A stretch of DNA of 5,988 bases from a virus (taxonomy: Duplodnaviria > Heunggongvirae > Uroviricota > Caudoviricetes), in the IMG/VR virus record IMGVR_UViG_2534681774_000011, positions 1 to 5,988 of that record. One strand, 5' to 3'. The position numbers and the translations under genes were made by a program. The notes under the pieces were generated by a model that saw only the letters and a list, made by a program, of their open reading frames with translations, did no database searches and had not been told where the DNA came from. Of this stretch, positions 1 through 5,988 are shown in pieces (the first letter of the stretch is position 1; the number at the start of each line of letters is the position of its first letter).

Positions 1-1
1 C

Positions 2-154
2 GCATCACGCGTCGCGCAAATCATGCACATCAATATGCTGCATGAGCGTAGCTGCGAACTTTCAAACCTCTATTCATCCGCTGTTTTCAGCTATCTGGCG
101 GATGATCTGCGCGAGCTTCAGCAGCTCATCCAGCAGCAAAACAAACTCCATTAA
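2..154 (+). CDS. 3' end of an upstream gene entering from beyond the window (hypothetical protein, C-terminus ...LADDLRELQQLIQQQNKLH)
   Basis: Reading frame +2 is open from the window edge to TAA at 152-154 and translates to a protein-like sequence (ASRVAQIMHINMLHERSCELSNLYSSAVFSYLADDLRELQQLIQQQNKLH). It is co-oriented with the downstream operon. The competing +3 frame ORF (42-230) is serine-rich low complexity. Frame choice is unresolved without a homology search. Confidence 0.35.
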   Translation, partial: ASRVAQIMHINMLHERSCELSNLYSSAVFSYLADDLRELQQLIQQQNKLH

Positions 155-226
155 TTCCTGTTCCGGGCCTTTCCTGCACCTTGCGGCGGGAGGCCTTCGC
201 ACATCTGTAACAAGAGGATTGCCGCA

Positions 227-592
227 ATGATTCTCGCCAACGACTTTCTTGAATACCTGCTCAACACAGAACGTGATCTTGCCGCTCGCGTGCGTGAACG
301 TTATGACATGTACCTGAAATCCCTGCCTGTACCGCAGCTCGCTGACGGAAAGATTGTTATTGATGGTCGCTACATGATTGACAGCCACGAGGGAAATTAC
401 AGGCTTTACCGCATTGAAGGTGGCACCCCGTCCGTTATTGGCATTTACCAGCGCCCATCCTCTGCAATCGTCGATGTGATTGCCGACAGCATCCGCATCA
501 CACATCGCCATGCCGACACAGAAGACACCGTGCTGGAAATTCAGCGGCTGGCTACAGTCTGCCGCGACACCCTGAATGGCATAACGAAGTAA
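227..592 (+). CDS. hypothetical small protein of the early/replication operon, 121 aa, function unknown
   Basis: ATG at 227 preceded by AGAGGA about 13 nt upstream. Stop TAA 590-592 lies 6 nt before the next ATG (599), giving tight operon spacing with the gpA-like gene. The translation has no recognisable motif. The antisense ORF 74-1063 is judged spurious. Confidence 0.6.
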   Translation: MILANDFLEYLLNTERDLAARVRERYDMYLKSLPVPQLADGKIVIDGRYMIDSHEGNYRLYRIEGGTPSVIGIYQRPSSAIVDVIADSIRITHRHADTEDTVLEIQRLATVCRDTLNGITK

Positions 593-598
593 ATCACT

Positions 599-1060
599 AT
601 GACGGCAGAGTACATCAGGGACTGGCAGCAACCGCGCCACGCAGTGGGGCGTGAAGGAACGGGGATCCCCGCTCCTGAATCCGCGCTTTCCTCCTGGCTG
701 GATGCCTACCGGGCAGAGAACGAGCGCTGCCAGGAAATGGCTGATGCGGCGTTCTCCGCCACGCCGCTGGGCAACCTGATTAATAAAAGCCTGGACGCAC
801 AGGAAAAACAGGACAAAACCATCACACTGGCAGGAGACGCCAGAAAGCAGGCACGCGGCGCGGTGGATGAAGCCATGGCCTCGCTGCGCCTGCTGCCATC
901 CTATCTGCGCGATCCGCTTATTCGCCACCTCTCCTTCCTGCGCAAAAAACAGGAATCGACCGCCAGAAAGGCAAAAAGAGCTGGCAGGCTGAACGCTACG
1001 CGCGCGGAACCCTGCGCAAAATATTCGAACGTCTGGACCGCACCGACGGGCGCTGGCTGA
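599..1060 (+). CDS. probable N-terminal segment of the gpA-like replication initiator, in frame +2 (out of frame with the main ORF); alternatively a separate small gene
   Basis: ATG 599 follows the previous stop by 6 nt. The translation is protein-like up to about residue 125 (...LRLLPSYLRDPLIRHLSFLRKKQESTARKAK) and then turns low-complexity (RAGRLNATRAEPCAKYSNVWTAPTGAG). Exactly there, frame +1 becomes protein-like and continues into the HUH initiator ORF. Frame +1 is open from 871 to 1105 without any ATG/GTG/TTG. Confidence 0.5.
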   Translation: MTAEYIRDWQQPRHAVGREGTGIPAPESALSSWLDAYRAENERCQEMADAAFSATPLGNLINKSLDAQEKQDKTITLAGDARKQARGAVDEAMASLRLLPSYLRDPLIRHLSFLRKKQESTARKAKRAGRLNATRAEPCAKYSNVWTAPTGAG

Positions 1061-1104
1061 CACCGGGTTATCGCTCCCTTGCCGGACGCGAACGCCTGGA
1101 TGAT

Positions 1105-3420
1105 TTGCTTTACCTGCCGCAGCTCAACAAGCACCAGATACAGACGCTGGCCACCATGACGGCGGCGATGTTCAGCAGCACCTTCGAAACACTCTGCGAT
1201 GGCTTTGGTGCCAGAGATGGCGAACTGACCATGGATGTAACGCTGAAGGCGTATCGGATGCTGGCCCGTATCGCATTACGCCTGCACATCATGCCGCCAC
1301 ATTACGACGCACTGACAACAGACAAAGACCGGAGGAACGATCCGGACACGGAACTGTTACCGGGCGCAATCCTTCGCCTGACCTGTGCGGAATGGTGGAA
1401 ACGCAAACTGTGGCTGTTACGTTGCGAGTGGAGAGAAGAACAACTCCGCGCCGCCTGTCTGGTTTCCAGAAAAACATCACCCTATCTGAGCCAGGACGCG
1501 TTAAGCGAGTTTCGCGCACAGCGCGAGAAAACACGCGATTTCCTGAAAAGTTTCATGCTGGAAAATGAAGACGGGTTCACGATTGATCTCGAGACAGTGT
1601 ATTACGCGGGAGTAAGTAACCCGGTTCACCGTAAGGCAGAAATGATGGCCACCATGAAGGGACTGGAACTTCTGGCCGAAGCCCGTGGCGACAGAGCGGT
1701 GTTTCTGACTGTCACCTGCCCGTCAAAATACCACGCAACAACGGAGAACGGTCATCCGAACCCCAAATGGAACGGGGCCACCATGCGCGACTCCAGCGAT
1801 TACCTGGTTAACACGTTTTTTGCGGCGGTCCGCAAGAAACTGAACCGCGACGGCCTGCGCTGGTATGGCATCCGCACGGTGGAGCCTCACCATGACGGAA
1901 CCGTGCACTGGCATATGATGGTCTTTGCCCATCCGGAAGAAATCGACACCATTGTGTCCCACACCCGCGATATTGCCATTCAGGAAGATCGTCACGAGCT
2001 GGGCGATGATATTACTCCGCGCTTTAAGGCGGAGTATGTAGACGGCTCAAAAGGCACGCCAACCAGCTACATCGCCACCTACATCGGAAAGAACCTGGAC
2101 AGCCGCGCCGTGGATGGCATCGACCCGAAAACGGGCAAGCCACGCGTTGACCACGAAACAGGAAAATCAATGGCCGAGAGCGTGGAGCGCGCCATCGGCT
2201 GGGCGCGCCTTCACCGGGTCCGCCAGTTCCAGTTCTTTGGCATCCCCTCCCGTCAGGTGTGGCGTGAACTCCGCCGCCTTGCCAGCCAGATGGCACGCAA
2301 CCCGGAAGGCCCGCAACGGCTGAAGGATGACGCAATGGATGCGGTTCTTGCTGCCGCTGATGCCGGATGTTTTGCCACCTACATAGAGAAACAGGGCGGC
2401 GTACTTGTTCCACGCAAAGACTACCTGATTCGCACCGCCTACGACCTCGCCGATGAGCTGAACGATTACGGCGAACAGAGCGTACAGATTTACGGGATCT
2501 GGTCACCACTCATCGGGGAATCCTCCCGTGTGTGCACGCATCCGGATAACTGGAAGCTGGTAAGACGCAAACCGGAAGCGGAAGACAGCGCCCGCGAAAA
2601 TGGTTTTGACCTTCAGGGCGGCCCTGCCGCCCCTTGGACTCGTGGCAATAACTGTCCCCGTGTACAGGAAACGGACAACAACGGGACAGAACAGTCGGAA
2701 GAACGGCCAGCACCGTGGCCGCAGCTCCCTGACGGCGTTGAAGTGAACGAATGGATGCGCTCACTGAAACGGCACGAACGCCGGGCGCTGATGCGTTCGC
2801 TTCGTGACAAACAGGCAAAAAACAGCAGTGATGAAATGCAGAGCTGGACACAGAGCCGCAAACAGCAGCGGCCTTTGCCTGATAACCACGAATTACTCGC
2901 TAAAGAATGGCGGAAGTCTGCCGAATCTCTCGGCCTGCATATCGGTGAACAGCAGATGCAGCACCTGTTACGGGGCGGCAGTCTGTACGTTGACGGCAGC
3001 ATCATTGCACCGCAGGGATTTGAAATTGTACGCAAACCGGATACCCGCCCGGACAGTCGAATCACGCAGCTCTGGCAGCACCTGAGCCGTAATCACGGCG
3101 TAAGCAGCACGGAGATCCGCCATAACCCGGTCGCCAGCTATCTGGCACAGCTGGGGGCATCAGACCCCGAAGCCGCCGCACGCCTGGCATCCGCACTTCA
3201 GCAGGATCAGAACACCATGAAAACACCCGTTACCGTGCTTTCTGACATGCTGCGCGCCATCCGCGACGCAGAGCACGCACAGAGAATCAGTGAAACCACT
3301 GAACGCGCCAGCCGCAAAGCAGACCTGCTGCAGGGTGGCCTGACCAGTGGAAACAAAAAACAGACAGAAACGGGATCCACAAATCCCGTAAATGAGCAAA
3401 AAACGCGCCGCGATATATGA
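1105..3420 (+). CDS. phage P2 gpA-family rolling-circle replication initiation endonuclease (HUH nickase); major in-frame portion, likely N-terminally incomplete as an ORF
   Basis: 771-codon ORF. Contains the HUH-type metal-binding motif VEPHHDGTVHWHMMVF (nt about 1885-1930) and paired catalytic tyrosines Y-IAT-Y-IGKN (TAC 2068-2070 and 2080-2082), characteristic of P2 A-type initiators. The ORF-track start at 1105 is TTG with no convincing SD. Coding-like sequence continues upstream in the same frame to the stop at 868-870. Confidence 0.85.
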   Translation: MLYLPQLNKHQIQTLATMTAAMFSSTFETLCDGFGARDGELTMDVTLKAYRMLARIALRLHIMPPHYDALTTDKDRRNDPDTELLPGAILRLTCAEWWKRKLWLLRCEWREEQLRAACLVSRKTSPYLSQDALSEFRAQREKTRDFLKSFMLENEDGFTIDLETVYYAGVSNPVHRKAEMMATMKGLELLAEARGDRAVFLTVTCPSKYHATTENGHPNPKWNGATMRDSSDYLVNTFFAAVRKKLNRDGLRWYGIRTVEPHHDGTVHWHMMVFAHPEEIDTIVSHTRDIAIQEDRHELGDDITPRFKAEYVDGSKGTPTSYIATYIGKNLDSRAVDGIDPKTGKPRVDHETGKSMAESVERAIGWARLHRVRQFQFFGIPSRQVWRELRRLASQMARNPEGPQRLKDDAMDAVLAAADAGCFATYIEKQGGVLVPRKDYLIRTAYDLADELNDYGEQSVQIYGIWSPLIGESSRVCTHPDNWKLVRRKPEAEDSARENGFDLQGGPAAPWTRGNNCPRVQETDNNGTEQSEERPAPWPQLPDGVEVNEWMRSLKRHERRALMRSLRDKQAKNSSDEMQSWTQSRKQQRPLPDNHELLAKEWRKSAESLGLHIGEQQMQHLLRGGSLYVDGSIIAPQGFEIVRKPDTRPDSRITQLWQHLSRNHGVSSTEIRHNPVASYLAQLGASDPEAAARLASALQQDQNTMKTPVTVLSDMLRAIRDAEHAQRISETTERASRKADLLQGGLTSGNKKQTETGSTNPVNEQKTRRDI
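3368..3392. repeat. copy 1 of a 25-bp repeat containing a 7-bp-arm palindrome (AAACGGGAT-N6-ATCCCGTAAA); candidate centromere/operator or origin element
   Basis: aaACGGGATccacaaATCCCGTaaa. Arms ACGGGAT and ATCCCGT are perfect reverse complements separated by 6 nt. It lies inside the last 50 nt of the gpA-like ORF. Confidence 0.55.
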
Positions 3421-3496
3421 AGCGCGCACAAAACAGGCAAAAACGGGATTTCAGAATCCCGTAAACGATTAATTAATCAACATAAGGAAAAGCGAC
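3421..3496 (+). promoter_or_regulatory. putative promoter/operator region of the parM-parR operon
   Basis: AT-rich 76-bp intergenic stretch (..cgattaattaatcaacataaggaaaagcgac) with SD AAGGA at 3484-3488 and palindrome copy 2 overlapping the likely promoter. In known ParMRC loci the ParR-bound repeats flank the par promoter. No precise -35/-10 could be assigned with confidence. Confidence 0.35.
3441..3465. repeat. copy 2 of the same 25-bp palindrome-containing repeat, in the intergenic region upstream of parM
   Basis: aaACGGGATttcagaATCCCGTaaa. Arms and flanks are identical to copy 1 and only the 6-nt spacer differs. It is 73 bp downstream of copy 1 and about 30 bp upstream of the parM ribosome-binding site. 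Confidence 0.55.
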
Positions 3497-4456
3497 ATGA
3501 AAATTTGTATCGACGACGGCTCCACCAACATCAAGCTGGCATGGACTGAGAACGGCGAACGCCGCAACGCCATCAGCCCGAACAGCTTCAAGTCGGAATG
3601 GTCTGCGCCGTTCGGTGGCACGCATCCCGCGAACTACATGCTTGATGGCGTGCGCTATGGCTTTGATCCGGTCAGCGATCGCTTTGTCCAGACGACCGAC
3701 ACGCAATACCAGTACAGCGATGTGAATGTAATCGCCATTCACCACGCGCTGGTCAAATCAGGCATCACACCACAGGAGGTGGATGTGGTTGTCACCCTGC
3801 CACTGAGCGAGTATTTCGACACAAACGCACAGCCGGACATGGCCAACATCAACCGCAAAAAAGCGAACGTCATGCGCCCGGTGGAGTACCAGAACGGTGA
3901 GGCATTCACTATCCGTAACGTGCGGGTTATGCCTGAATCCATTCCGGCAGGCTTTAAGGCACTGGCTGACATGAGTCCGTTTGAATCCCTGCTGATTGTG
4001 GATTTGGGCGGAACCACGCTGGATGTGGCAAAGGTTCAGGGACAACTGGCAGGTATCAGCCAGGTGTTTTGCGATCCACACGTAGGTGTTTCACTGATGG
4101 CCGATGCCGTGCTGTCGGTGATGGCCACTAACGGTATGCGCACCAGTCACCACATCGCCAATACCATTATTGAACATCGCCATGATGAAGCCTGGCTGCG
4201 CCAGCACATCCACAATGACGCGCATTACGCCAGCCTGATGGCGGTTATTCGTGAAAAGGAAGAAACACTGAAACAACGCGTGATCCGCGCGCTGGCGGGT
4301 TTTTCGGGTTACGGGCGGGTGATGGTTGTCGGTGGCGGGGCGGAGATTGTGGCACCCGCTATCCGCGAAGCCTGCGGAGTTAATGCGACTTTCATCGCGG
4401 ACGGGGTGCCACAGTTTGCTCTGGTTAATGGGCTGTACGCAATGGACAAGGAGTAA
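3497..4456 (+). CDS. parM: ParM/StbA-family actin-like segregation ATPase (type II partition)
   Basis: 319 aa. The N-terminus MKICIDDGSTNIKLAW...ISPNSFKSEW...YQYSDVNVIAIHHAL...VDVVVTLPL closely parallels plasmid R1 ParM as recalled (MLVFIDDGSTNIKLQW...ISPNSFKREW...WQYSDVNVVAVHHAL...). Length matches ParM (about 320 aa). Actin-fold phosphate motifs DDGSTN and VDLGGTT are present. SD AAGGA lies 8 nt upstream of ATG 3497. Confidence 0.9.
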   Translation: MKICIDDGSTNIKLAWTENGERRNAISPNSFKSEWSAPFGGTHPANYMLDGVRYGFDPVSDRFVQTTDTQYQYSDVNVIAIHHALVKSGITPQEVDVVVTLPLSEYFDTNAQPDMANINRKKANVMRPVEYQNGEAFTIRNVRVMPESIPAGFKALADMSPFESLLIVDLGGTTLDVAKVQGQLAGISQVFCDPHVGVSLMADAVLSVMATNGMRTSHHIANTIIEHRHDEAWLRQHIHNDAHYASLMAVIREKEETLKQRVIRALAGFSGYGRVMVVGGGAEIVAPAIREACGVNATFIADGVPQFALVNGLYAMDKE

Positions 4457-4460
4457 GCCA

Positions 4461-4772
4461 ATGACGACACCAACCAGACGGATAAGTTTCTATCTGAAGC
4501 CCGCCGCCGTCAAGAACGAAGGCGAAGCATGCGCCTGGCTGGACAGCCTTACACCAGAAGCCCGCAAAAGTGGTCAACGCGTGGCTTTTCTGGCCGGGCT
4601 GGCACTACTGAAAATGAATCCGGCAGAGGCTTACCGACTGGCTGCATGGGCTGATGATGAGGCGTTATCAGTGACACAAACCAGGACAGAACGCCCCGCG
4701 TCACAGCCAGTATCAGCCGCACAGATAACCAGTCAGATGGCCGGAAATATCCGGGCGTTATTTCCCGAATAA
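4461..4772 (+). CDS. parR: ParR/StbB-like centromere-binding adaptor of the type II partition system
   Basis: 104 aa from ATG 4461, with SD AAGGAG at 4448-4453, 4 nt after the parM stop. The N-terminal region RRISFYLKPAAV...LDSLTPEARKSGQRVAFLAGLALL resembles R1 ParR as recalled (RRTIAFKLNPDV...LDSIPQGERSRLNRAALTAGLALY). The ORF-track start at 4326 is an upstream in-frame extension overlapping parM and is not used. Confidence 0.75.
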   Translation: MTTPTRRISFYLKPAAVKNEGEACAWLDSLTPEARKSGQRVAFLAGLALLKMNPAEAYRLAAWADDEALSVTQTRTERPASQPVSAAQITSQMAGNIRALFPE

Positions 4773-4777
4773 CACAA

Positions 4778-4801
4778 CATCAGGGCGCATCCGCCCTGAT
4801 G
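4778..4801 (+). terminator. perfect 10-bp-stem/4-nt-loop GC-rich hairpin immediately after parR; possible terminator or module-boundary structure (no U-tract)
   Basis: CATCAGGGCG-catc-CGCCCTGATG begins 6 nt after the parR stop. It is followed by ACTTTAACCC rather than a T-run, so it is not a canonical intrinsic terminator. Composition shifts to lower GC downstream. Confidence 0.3.
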
Positions 4802-4835
4802 ACTTTAACCCGGGAGCATAAACAAGGGGGACACA

Positions 4836-5168
4836 ATGCAACACATTGACAGAGAAAAAGCGCAGCGACTGATTGAGCGGATGGAAGCGCTGGCGAAAGA
4901 AGAAAATGTCAACATCCAAAAAATAGCTGAATGTGGCCAGATAGTTCTTCGTCGTGAAAAAGACCTCAAACAACTGATGTCTGGCGAAACCAGCAAAACA
5001 TGGACTTCAGGTGAGGAGACGATTTATTGCAGCTTCTGCAATAAATCCCAGTACGAAGTCACAAAGGTGATTGCTGGACCGTCTGTTTACATCTGCAATG
5101 AGTGCGTGGATTTGTGCAATGAAATTATCAGGAGAGAAGTGACAGACAAAAAGGGAAAAAACGCATGA
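4836..5168 (+). CDS. small protein with a C-terminal ClpX-type C4 zinc-binding domain (zf-C4_ClpX-like), standalone and lacking an AAA+ module
   Basis: 110 aa. SD GGGGGA lies 5-6 nt before ATG 4836. The C-terminus ...[38 protein letters not shown] nearly matches the ClpX N-domain as recalled ([39 protein letters not shown]), with the four Zn-ligand cysteines CSFC...CNEC. The N-terminal 70 aa are predicted helical and charged. Confidence 0.8.
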
Positions 5169-5500
5169 ACAGAAAACAAAAACAAGAGTTGAAATACTTC
5201 TTACGTAAAGAAATTGCCAGGCTTGAAGATGCAGAATCACAATCATCAGAAATTCCGTTCGGAATGGATATCAACGACGCCCGTATACTCCAGGCATACC
5301 GCATAGCTCAGGCTGCACTACAGGCAAAACCGTCAGATGGACTGGTTAGAGCAGTACGTTTCTATGAACTGGTAAAGCGTGAGAATCCGCCAGTCGAAAC
5401 CGGAGCATGGAAAGACGCTGTTGACTGGGTGCTCAAAGAGGCTTGCCATGTTGTAAATATTGGTATCAAGGGAGGGGGATATGGCAACCAACAACCGTAA
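5165..5500 (+). CDS. hypothetical protein, 111 aa, translationally coupled to the ClpX-ZBD-like gene
   Basis: ATG 5165 overlaps the upstream TGA (5166-5168) in an ATGA arrangement. The translation is protein-like and no motif was recognised. Confidence 0.65.
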
Positions 5501-5675
5501 AGCAAAGATTCTGTTAGTTCGCAGAAACGATCCAGGCGTATGGCAGTGGGTGAGACTCAGCAACCGACGAATTGGGTTGATGAAATATTACGGGATGATG
5601 GATTGCGGTTTTTGCAAAAAGCCCAGCGCGGCGCAAAACCGCTGGAAAAACCACTTTCGCATTAAAGGAGAGTGA
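5481..5675 (+). CDS. hypothetical small basic protein, 64 aa
   Basis: ATG 5481 is preceded by a strong SD AAGGGAGGGGG (5468-5478) and overlaps the 3' end of the preceding ORF by 20 nt. The protein is lysine/arginine-rich ([23 protein letters not shown]...). The ORF-track start at 5460 is rejected in favour of the SD-backed ATG. Confidence 0.5.
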   Translation: MATNNRKAKILLVRRNDPGVWQWVRLSNRRIGLMKYYGMMDCGFCKKPSAAQNRWKNHFRIKGE

Positions 5676-5676
5676 G

Positions 5677-5895
5677 GTGCCTACACTATTCAGGAAAAAC
5701 TATCCGCGAAAGAGTAGAGCAATAGAATTTCTGTTTCTCATTCTGTTTATCGTGTTGATGATACCGATATCCCCGCTAATTTTTATCTGGGCAATCGGGA
5801 AAATAATTGAGCCAGTTATTGAATTGTATAACGACGTGGTATGGGCGTCGTTCAACACATTGCACAATAAAATTAATCCGTATAAGGAAAACTGA
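5677..5895 (+). CDS. hypothetical small membrane protein, 72 aa, with one long hydrophobic helix
   Basis: GTG 5677 lies 1 nt after the upstream TGA, with SD AAAGGAG (5664-5670) 6 nt upstream. The hydrophobic segment AIEFLFLILFIVLMIPISPLIFIWAIG is flanked by basic residues. The region is markedly AT-rich. The antisense ORF 5700-5969 is considered spurious. Confidence 0.5.
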   Translation: MPTLFRKNYPRKSRAIEFLFLILFIVLMIPISPLIFIWAIGKIIEPVIELYNDVVWASFNTLHNKINPYKEN

Positions 5896-5896
5896 T

Positions 5897-5988
5897 ATGG
5901 CAACGTTGACAAAAAAAGAACAGGCATGGTTGAACGAATTACAGGACGTTCTTGATCGCTGTCCATCACCGAAAAAAATTGGTTTTTA
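5897..5988 (+). CDS. 5' end of a further gene running off the window (MATLTKKEQAWLNELQDVLDRCPSPKKIGF...), function unknown
   Basis: ATG 5897 lies 1 nt after the preceding TGA (5893-5895) with SD AAGGA (5884-5888). The frame is open to the window edge. Only 30 codons are visible. Confidence 0.4.
   Translation, partial: MATLTKKEQAWLNELQDVLDRCPSPKKIGF

Follow-up and report, generated by a model that had tools for sequence, protein, structure and literature searches.

Why does a phage replication initiator gene appear in two reading frames on contig AIHE01000084.1 of Escherichia coli DEC12E? This contig, which in its entirety is the 5,988-bp stretch of DNA analyzed here (hereafter, the window), comes from a 2012 draft assembly; it is short, bounded by repeats, and ends inside prophage DNA. 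A preliminary description had recognized one open reading frame (ORF) at 599-1060, a second one at 1105-3420, and a stretch of frame +1 from 871 to 1105 that is open but startless, all of which are present as described, and had interpreted them as a gpA-like initiator split over two frames by a 1-nt frameshift. A single indel relative to phage P88 and to related prophages bears out this interpretation (Table 1). The split gpA is an ordinary one-off mutation or a sequencing error, with no new biological mechanism.

Table 1 Features of the split gpA gene, with positions numbered along the window.
Feature	Position	Strand	Details
Lesion site	955..958	+	One base missing; sole indel compared to ten intact 2,823-nt alleles
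5' fragment ORF	599..1060	+	153 aa, ATG start, GenBank EHX39490.1
Native gpA N-terminus in 5' fragment	599-957/958	+	Codons 1-120
gpA remainder in native frame	958..3420	+	Codons 121-940, stop 3418-3420
Downstream ORF as annotated	1105..3420	+	771 aa, TTG start, EHX39491.1
A6 run	944..949	+	Normal length; other assemblies have different frameshift alleles here
A AAA AGA in shifted frame	973..979	+	A5 run, then AGA codon
PF05840 Phage_GPA domain	1132..2106	+	Profile 1-321 of 321; residues 10-334 of the 1105 ORF
HUH motif (His-Trp-His)	1906..1914	+	Residues 437-439 of the repaired protein
Catalytic tyrosine pair Y-I-A-T-Y	2068..2082	+	Tyr491/Tyr495 of the repaired protein

Prophage context and identity of the split gene

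The window contains the early/replication region of a prophage that resembles phage P88 (Xuanwuvirus, P2 family). Escherichia phage P88 shares 97% nucleotide identity with the window over 5.4 kb and has the same gene order (a 121-aa ORF, gpA, ParM, a ParR-like protein, and a ClpX zinc-finger protein). The location is that of a P2-like (Peduoviridae) early operon, which in the relatives runs integrase, repressor, cox, ..., gpA, ..., portal/terminase/capsid, and with which the window is collinear. The best whole-window match was E. coli O111:H2 strain 12A (gpA WP_000123484.1; 98.7% over all 5,988 nt), the serotype of which we take to be that of DEC12E; its orthologous prophage is inserted adjoining pheA. 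The gpA of a prophage in FDAARGOS_1059 is likewise an ortholog of the window gene. Compared to strain 12A, window positions 3884-5988 contain one difference in 2,105 nt and no indel, and the left 3.9 kb contains 79 differing sites, which occur in clusters and suggest past recombination.

In P2-family phages, rolling-circle replication is initiated by gpA, an HUH/tyrosine nickase. The P2 protein is 761 aa long with catalytic residues Tyr450/Tyr454, the origin lies inside gene A, and in both P2 and 186 the protein acts in cis on its own genome. In the window, the 1105-3420 ORF matched the complete Phage_GPA profile (E=3e-130, 434 bits vs the curated cut-off of 31.4) and phrog_91 ('nicking at origin of replication'; E=1e-261). 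The latter match begins at profile position 148 in the 771-aa ORF vs position 30 in intact relatives, with positions 1-147 missing, and the ORF is without the first 169 residues of gpA.

Restoring the missing base produced a clean ORF of 940 codons with no internal stop. The joined initiator, expected from the two frames to comprise about 940 aa, therefore has exactly this length, as does P88 gpA (YP_009113059.1), with which it is collinear (96 substitutions, no further indel). P88 gpA is a single ORF, whereas the window gene is split into 153 and 771 codons by the missing base. The tyrosines previously located at residues 322/326 of the 1105-start ORF correspond in the alignment to residues 491/495 of the joined protein, and Y491, Y495, and H437-W-H439 are invariant in an alignment with gpA of P88, the 946-aa type, Fels-2, and Klebsiella 4LV2017. 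The full-length Phage_GPA domain, the HUH motif, and the Y-x3-Y pair are shared with gpA of P2, 186, and Fels-2. However, the P88-type protein is longer (940 aa vs 809 aa as annotated for Fels-2). Its N-terminal module is lineage-specific, and it has a linker of 8 residues that is missing in Fels-2 types. The repaired ORF has a dN/dS of 0.12-0.16, compared to 0.14 between intact genes. Members of the gpA family have a single continuous ORF that includes the N-terminal region; the window gene, split at 955-958, is classified from these sequence features as a disrupted copy of a P2-type gpA family member, an HUH/tyrosine initiator.

A single base is missing at 955-958

Alignment to P88, P88_4B11, and four E. 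coli prophages revealed exactly one indel in the 2.8-kb gene, at 955-958, where TCTG is shortened to TCG at a non-homopolymer site. The gene measures 2,822 nt in the window and 2,823 nt in the relatives, including the intact ortholog of strain 12A. The closest natural allele reads CAGGAATCTGACCGCCAG, compared to CAGGAATCGACCGCCAG in the window. Using the closest local allele (GAATCTGACC) as the reference, a T is lost between 957 and 958, and with P88/RM14723 (GAAGYCGAT) the aligner puts the gap between 955 and 956. The lesion had previously been placed in the A5 run at 973-977, a position that must be corrected: the missing base lies 16-20 nt upstream. An insertion in the A5 run would rejoin the frames, as had been proposed, but the window does not differ from its relatives there, and the run lies inside a stretch matched exactly in all intact homologs. 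The A6 run likewise has six bases in the window and in all intact relatives. A homopolymer error at either run was rejected because the run lengths are the same as in the intact relatives.

Upstream of the lesion, frame +2 matches P88 gpA residues 1-119 and thereafter diverges. The native sequence, which runs to ...FLRKKQE(S) and matches P88 and the IMG/VR alleles, is followed by an out-of-frame tail of 33-34 aa (nt 958-1057) and a stop at 1058-1060. In frame +1, no stop codon interrupts the stretch between the stop at 868-870 and 1105; it reads ...KGKKSWQAERYARGTLRKIFERLDRTDGRW..., and the same residues occur in the single gpA ORF of P88. There is no ATG, GTG, or TTG in this frame between that stop and 1105; in agreement with the preliminary description, no Shine-Dalgarno sequence was seen by eye for the TTG at 1105, and no promoter-like site was found upstream of it. 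The native-frame remainder can be reached from the ATG at 599 only by a -1 shift.

Comparisons with other genomes showed that gpA is one ORF of about 940 codons in P88 and in every complete E. coli genome inspected (single-ORF loci: P88, P88_4B11, RM14723, 12A, AH21B060, MFDS1019527, pCREC455-3, PCN033, U15A, and AZ184). Ten further loci encode 935-946-aa gpA products, and in a 16,881-member protein cluster nearly every listed non-partial member has 940-946 aa. Of about 119 complete-genome matches listed (60 top matches and 59 evenly spread ones), none was out of frame in this segment, all having a span of the query length plus 1 or 15 less than that. The conceptual fusion aligned continuously with gpA homologs across the junction, even at 28% identity (Fels-2 and Klebsiella phages, in a single frame), and no homolog starts near 1105. 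The in-frame allele ...CAGGAATCTGACCGCCAGAAAGGCAAAAAGAGCTGG... was found in two IMG/VR contigs encoding a 940-aa gpA. When the junction was searched for elsewhere, a 26-mer across the deletion was absent from GTDB representative genomes and from IMG/VR; no complete E. coli genome matched a 66-mer better than 95.5%, and the 153-aa product is recorded on AIHE01000084.1 only.

Searches of Pfam, NCBIfam, and PHROGs with the 153-aa product alone returned no match. That this product is an independent, conserved small protein was rejected, given that the related database entries are 'partial' replication endonucleases at contig ends or other frameshifted fragments. EHX39490.1 and EHX39491.1 are thus two halves of one gpA gene and call for correction or for annotation as a frameshifted pseudogene. 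The importance of the locus is mainly for annotation, and it raises no new question on phage replication or recoding.

Mutation in the prophage or error in the contig

At roughly even odds, and by only a small margin over a sequencing error, we favor the explanation that the DEC12E prophage truly acquired this deletion by mutation, and very recently. The codon following Glu119 would have lost one base (TCT to TC); it lies in a short variable linker joining the N-terminal module of about 120 aa to the conserved body. Translation from the ATG at 599 would then yield the 153-aa fragment, consisting of 120 native residues and the out-of-frame tail, and the 820 codons with the whole catalytic domain would have no start codon, Shine-Dalgarno sequence, or promoter to themselves. 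Given the cis action of P2 gpA, induction of the prophage would not lead to its replication, and the element would in effect be cryptic. Both the presence of the lesion in the cell and this phenotypic consequence are what we infer, and if the lesion is real, the DEC12E prophage is marked as replication-defective.

The non-homopolymer site and the otherwise clean contig support a real mutation over a platform error. Private substitutions within gpA (5 synonymous and 4 non-synonymous, too few for dating the lesion), together with two more in the upstream ORF that are non-synonymous by codon reading, would fit a lineage in which selection is somewhat relaxed. Private variants of this prophage lie, for example, at 728 and 1341-1359. 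Counting against a real mutation, the repaired gene has no other sign of decay and the product is known from one contig only; with a dN/dS as in intact genes and no other decay, the lesion, if real, must be very young.

The same observations bear on a sequencing or assembly consensus error, with the gene intact in the cell and the T missing only in the deposited contig, to which we assign somewhat less than an even chance. The lesion is private to one short contig of a 2012 draft, in a gene that is otherwise intact and under normal constraint. Moreover, the contig ends in prophage DNA, and strain 12A, the closest complete relative and presumably of the same serotype, carries three gpA-bearing P2-like prophages, which makes consensus errors plausible in a draft contig of this kind. 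Two of the 12A gpA copies differ exactly at this position in an offset, indel-like manner (GAAGTC-GAT vs GAA-TCTGAC), and mis-aligned reads from paralogous copies could drop a consensus column. Real frame disruption here is also rare in finished genomes, as the listed complete-genome matches indicate. However, not only is the site outside any homopolymer in a contig with no other indel, but the best 12A gpA copy is only 96.3% identical to window positions 599-1500, and a plain mixture of 12A-like paralogues would therefore not account for the left part of the contig. The local allele (the TCTGAC type joined to GGCAAAAAGAGCTGG) also occurs naturally, and since it does so in frame, no chimera is needed to account for the surrounding sequence.

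Among informative sites, the window agrees with 12A copy 2 at 10 of 10 in the interval 554-965 and with copy 1 from 972 on. Most of these sites are private changes in copy 1, and the state found in the window is common to many other alleles. A chimera of the two 12A prophage copies is conceivable but unnecessary, the same local allele being in frame in IMG/VR contigs. Reads from paralogous prophages would be of the GAAGTCGAT type.

Possible ribosomal frameshifting near the lesion

Only at the A AAA AGA at 973-979 could Lys-tRNA, by a chance -1 slip, restore the native frame. Were the deletion genuine yet leaky, infrequent slips there would produce full-length gpA with four altered residues in a dispensable linker and would permit some replication, a reading that we regard as improbable. 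The shifted frame reads GCA AAA AGA here (AGA is a rare codon in E. coli), AAA moved back one base re-pairs perfectly to give ...KAK/KSWQAERY..., and Fels-2-type gpA has no counterpart of the segment with the altered residues (8-aa gap). However, A AAA AGA does not fit the canonical heptamer X XXY YYZ, an SD-like GAAAGG lies only 2-3 nt upstream of the slip site (the wrong spacing for stimulating a -1 shift), and no stimulatory RNA structure was found downstream, where nt 978-1060 fold at -29.1 kcal/mol (z = -0.52 vs shuffles). Because all intact relatives have the same bases, the site is not a signal that evolved for slippage, and its efficiency is probably well below a few percent. Even more doubtful is the further proposal that the prophage is not dead, with slippage by a small fraction of ribosomes 16 nt downstream of the lesion yielding enough of the predicted cis-acting initiator for replication; if true, a slippery site that happens to lie nearby would be suppressing the phenotype of a naturally occurring frameshift mutation.

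A programmed frameshift, or a natural two-protein arrangement of the N-terminal module and the catalytic body, is in our view scarcely credible. It could appeal to N-terminal products of about 150 aa with the same end frame in other assemblies (P0001, P0011, P0026, and P0029), and to the N-terminal module (about 100 aa) being exchanged as a unit between phage lineages. Those products, however, result from different lesions, mostly an A lost from the A6 run (A5 in phage 520873; FLRKNRN... products in P0001, P0011, and P0026), and in some of the records several genes are broken up (phages 520873 and 503458). A single ORF is found in the overwhelming majority of the relatives, the distant ones included; a conserved two-frame arrangement was not found among the homologs examined, and the downstream part is without a start codon. 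Even though the window resembles programmed -1 frameshifting of the dnaX and IS911 type in its overlapping frames and in the A-runs near the frame change, it contains no X XXY YYZ heptamer in the 599 frame over the overlap at 871-1060, where the A-runs read C AAA AAA (943-949) and A AAA AGA. Lacking heptamer, structure, and conserved split, the locus upholds the earlier ranking, in which a real frameshift or a sequencing error came before programmed slippage. Other short gpA fragments exist in Mb-scale contigs and may include long-read homopolymer errors.

Division of gpA by a missing base

The window is contig AIHE01000084.1 of draft assembly GCA_000250295.2 (Escherichia coli DEC12E) in its full length. 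In sequence (97% identity over 5.4 kb) and in gene order (identical), it matches Escherichia phage P88, a Xuanwuvirus of the Peduoviridae (P2 family), in its early/replication region. The best match to the whole window is a prophage that adjoins pheA in strain 12A of E. coli O111:H2 (98.7% across all 5,988 nt).

Features of the window, in the gene order shared with phage P88
Feature	Position (nt)	Remarks
121-aa ORF	227-592	first in gene order
Replication endonuclease gpA		between 121-aa ORF and ParM
gpA HUH motif	1906-1914	H437-W-H439; intact, invariant in alignment
gpA tyrosine pair	2068-2082	Y491/Y495; intact, invariant in alignment
ParM	3497-4456	
ParR-like partition protein	4461-4772	
ClpX-type zinc-finger protein	4836-5168	
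Small ORFs		after the zinc-finger ORF

The replication initiator gpA is present as two ORFs, 599-1060 (153 aa) and 1105-3420 (771 aa, TTG start), as the preliminary description had reported; upstream of 1105, the frame of the latter indeed offers no possible start codon, and its nearest stop lies at 868-870. The 153-aa ORF corresponds to residues 1-119 of P88 gpA and diverges afterwards, and the frame of the 771-aa ORF follows P88 gpA from about residue 121 on. A single 2,823-nt CDS is annotated over the same span in P88, P88_4B11, and eight complete E. coli genomes (product 940 aa; 942 aa in RM14723), whereas the window measures 2,822 nt. Pairwise alignments to P88, P88_4B11, and the comparison loci L014 and L017 contain only one indel in the entire gene (directly after nt 955, the window lacks one base), and BLAST against 20 other loci returned a single gap in all collinear ones.

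Alleles at the junction
Source	Sequence
P88	CAGGAA GCC GAT CGC CGG
RM14723 and 12A copy 1	CAGGAA GTC GAT CGC CGG
12A copy 2 and phage 503458	CAGGAA TCT GAC CGC CAG
Window	CAGGAA TC- GAC CGC CAG

Because the exact in-frame sequence CGCAAAAAACAGGAATCTGACCGCCAGAAAGGCAAAAAGAGCTGGCAGGC occurs in two IMG/VR contigs, both encoding a 940-aa gpA, the lesion is most economically described as a T deletion at window position 957/958, in the TCT codon of Ser120. The preliminary description was right in its observation and main interpretation but has to be amended as to where the lesion lies and what kind it is: the A5 run (973-977), where it placed the frame break, is 16-20 nt off and lies inside a stretch exactly matched across all intact relatives. 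Since, in addition, the A6 run (944-949) is six A's long in every intact relative as well as in the window, the lesion is not a change in homopolymer length.

The undivided gene and other frameshifted alleles

On the comparisons made here, a single ORF is the normal state of gpA. Matches to nt 599-1500 were present in 1,341 records of complete E. coli genomes; in the best 60 and 59 evenly spread hits, the subject span equals the query plus one base (or plus one minus a 15-nt in-frame deletion), so that all of these are in frame. The 771-aa product belongs to a 90%-identity cluster of 16,881 members with a 946-aa representative, and the non-partial members among those listed are almost all 940-946 aa. 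Using tblastn, the N-terminal 239 residues of the repaired protein (one base restored) matched Fels-2, SopEPhi, many Klebsiella P2-like phages, and a Yersinia phage, each in one piece and in a single frame over residues 9-239 (25-29% identity). The protein alignment shows conserved residues before (P100, P106, L107) and after the junction (R133, Y134, R136, T138, E144-R-L146); the junction itself falls within an 8-residue segment that Fels-2-type proteins lack, which marks it as a variable linker. Intact relatives match phrog_91 ('nicking at origin of replication') from profile position 30, but the 771-aa ORF does so only from 148. The 153-aa product alone had no family match, and its relatives in a 5.8-billion-protein set are either entries labelled 'replication endonuclease, partial', truncated where a contig ends, or fragments produced by other frameshifts.

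Several of these fragments carry lesions different from that of the window. Database proteins P0001, P0011, and P0026 and phage 520873 read ...FLRKNRN..., reflecting one A lost from the A6 run, and terminate at the same stop as the 153-aa fragment; P0029 is likewise frameshifted, slightly upstream of the point of A loss. Phages 520873 and 503458 look like low-quality sequence because they are broken up in several places, 503458 also in its partition genes. Their RefSeq records (NC_049344.1 and NC_049341.1; loci L003 and L007) each carry gpA as three separate CDSs and appear riddled with frameshifts. Independent frameshifts in or next to the A6 run, with ~150-aa products ending at the stop of the 153-aa fragment, occur in other assemblies and in both N-terminal module types; they are probably homopolymer errors or mutations, and the run is, from these cases, a recurrent frameshift hotspot.

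Origin and consequence of the lesion

We found no sign of long-standing decay in the dN/dS, domain, motifs, or substitutions of the repaired gene. It comprises 940 codons with zero internal stops and a complete Pfam Phage_GPA domain, and its dN/dS against four intact alleles is 0.12-0.16 (0.14 between P88 and L017, both intact). Compared to 21 other sequences, it has nine private substitutions (5 synonymous, 4 non-synonymous), too few to separate selection from relaxation.

The chance that the lesion is a real, young mutation is, in our judgment, about even. The context of the missing base is not a homopolymer, the contig has no other indel, and positions 3884-5988 differ from strain 12A at one site in 2,105 nt. 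The prophage lineage is rare: this contig is the sole record even of the intact 121-aa protein encoded upstream, as would be the case for an element that has stopped spreading. Against this stands the somewhat less probable reading that the deletion is absent from the cell and present in the deposited contig alone, given a source that is a 2012 draft, a short, repeat-bounded contig, and a closest complete relative (12A) with three gpA-bearing prophages, two of which differ exactly here by offset, indel-like differences. The otherwise undamaged gene and the rarity of frame disruption in finished genomes (0 of ~119 hits inspected) also favor an artefact. The window resembles 12A copy 2 at sites 554-965 and copy 1 from 972 on; this apparent switch was rejected as good evidence of a chimera because most of the sites are private changes of copy 1 and the local allele occurs naturally.

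The remaining probability falls to leaky or programmed readings. Reaching the native frame requires a -1 shift, and neither of the A-runs in the upstream frame, C AAA AAA (943-949) and A AAA AGA (973-979), conforms to the canonical heptamer, X XXY YYZ. Folding of the 83 nt 3' of the A5 run is not stronger than that of shuffled sequences (z = -0.52), nothing resembling a promoter or terminator was found within 500-1300, and, as the chief argument against programmed frameshifting, the split is not conserved in relatives. More speculatively, Lys-tRNA on AAA (974-976), waiting for AGA, a rare codon in E. coli, could move back one base. Such a slip would return translation to the native frame and change only four residues, all in the dispensable linker, but nothing points beyond a fortuitous low-level event.

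If the lesion is real, translation from 599 would yield 120 native residues and a 33-aa out-of-frame tail, leaving the catalytic body without a start codon before the TTG at 1105, for which no Shine-Dalgarno was seen by eye, and without its own promoter-like site. A product from 1105, if made, would be short of 169 residues, among them the invariant RYxRxT...ERL block. Because gpA of P2 and 186 is the cis-acting nickase of the origin, without which rolling-circle replication does not take place, a prophage with a real lesion would be unable to replicate. The case is a known gene of a known phage family with a one-off single-base deletion; its value lies in annotation and is scientifically minor.

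Mosaic structure and neighboring modules

Compared to L019, the orthologous prophage of 12A, the left 3.9 kb (1-3883) contain 79 clustered differences and the right 2.1 kb only the one, and a patch at 1190-1305 matches another allele (L016), pointing to mosaicism in gpA and to a recombination boundary near 3884. Among 153 billion gene positions, the exact 121-aa product occurs on no other contig, whereas the ParM product is listed in 570 blocks of the collection. Both private changes within the 121-aa ORF (nt 298, 583) are non-synonymous by reading of codons. Homology to a group including PhiR44_2, Chuche, and many prophages with a 946-aa gpA (L005, L006, L009-L013) begins only at ~nt 902, about 55 nt upstream of the frameshift, and the upstream ORF (121 aa vs 129 aa) and first ~100 gpA codons appear to have been swapped together as a module.

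A 42-nt direct repeat at 3354-3468 has two copies 73 nt apart, one within the final gpA codons and one in the gpA-parM interval, each with the palindrome ACGGGAT-N6-ATCCCGT; these could be a candidate ParR operator/centromere (parC-like) or other regulatory site. The ParM/ParR-type pair (3497-4772) is of the plasmid partition type and lies inside a P2-like prophage; the gpA-ParM block also occurs on the 129-kb plasmid record pCREC455-3 (L028), and plasmids account for 457 of the window's 4,950 matches. The 110-aa zinc-finger protein is essentially a ClpX-type C4 finger (residues 60-106) without the ATPase domain and could be a phage modulator of ClpX. Positions 5493-5908 (a DUF4014 protein and neighbors) share ~93.5% identity with the Stx-converting lambdoid phages 933W, Sakai VT2, and Min27 and are, judging from this identity, a module common to P2-like and lambdoid phages.
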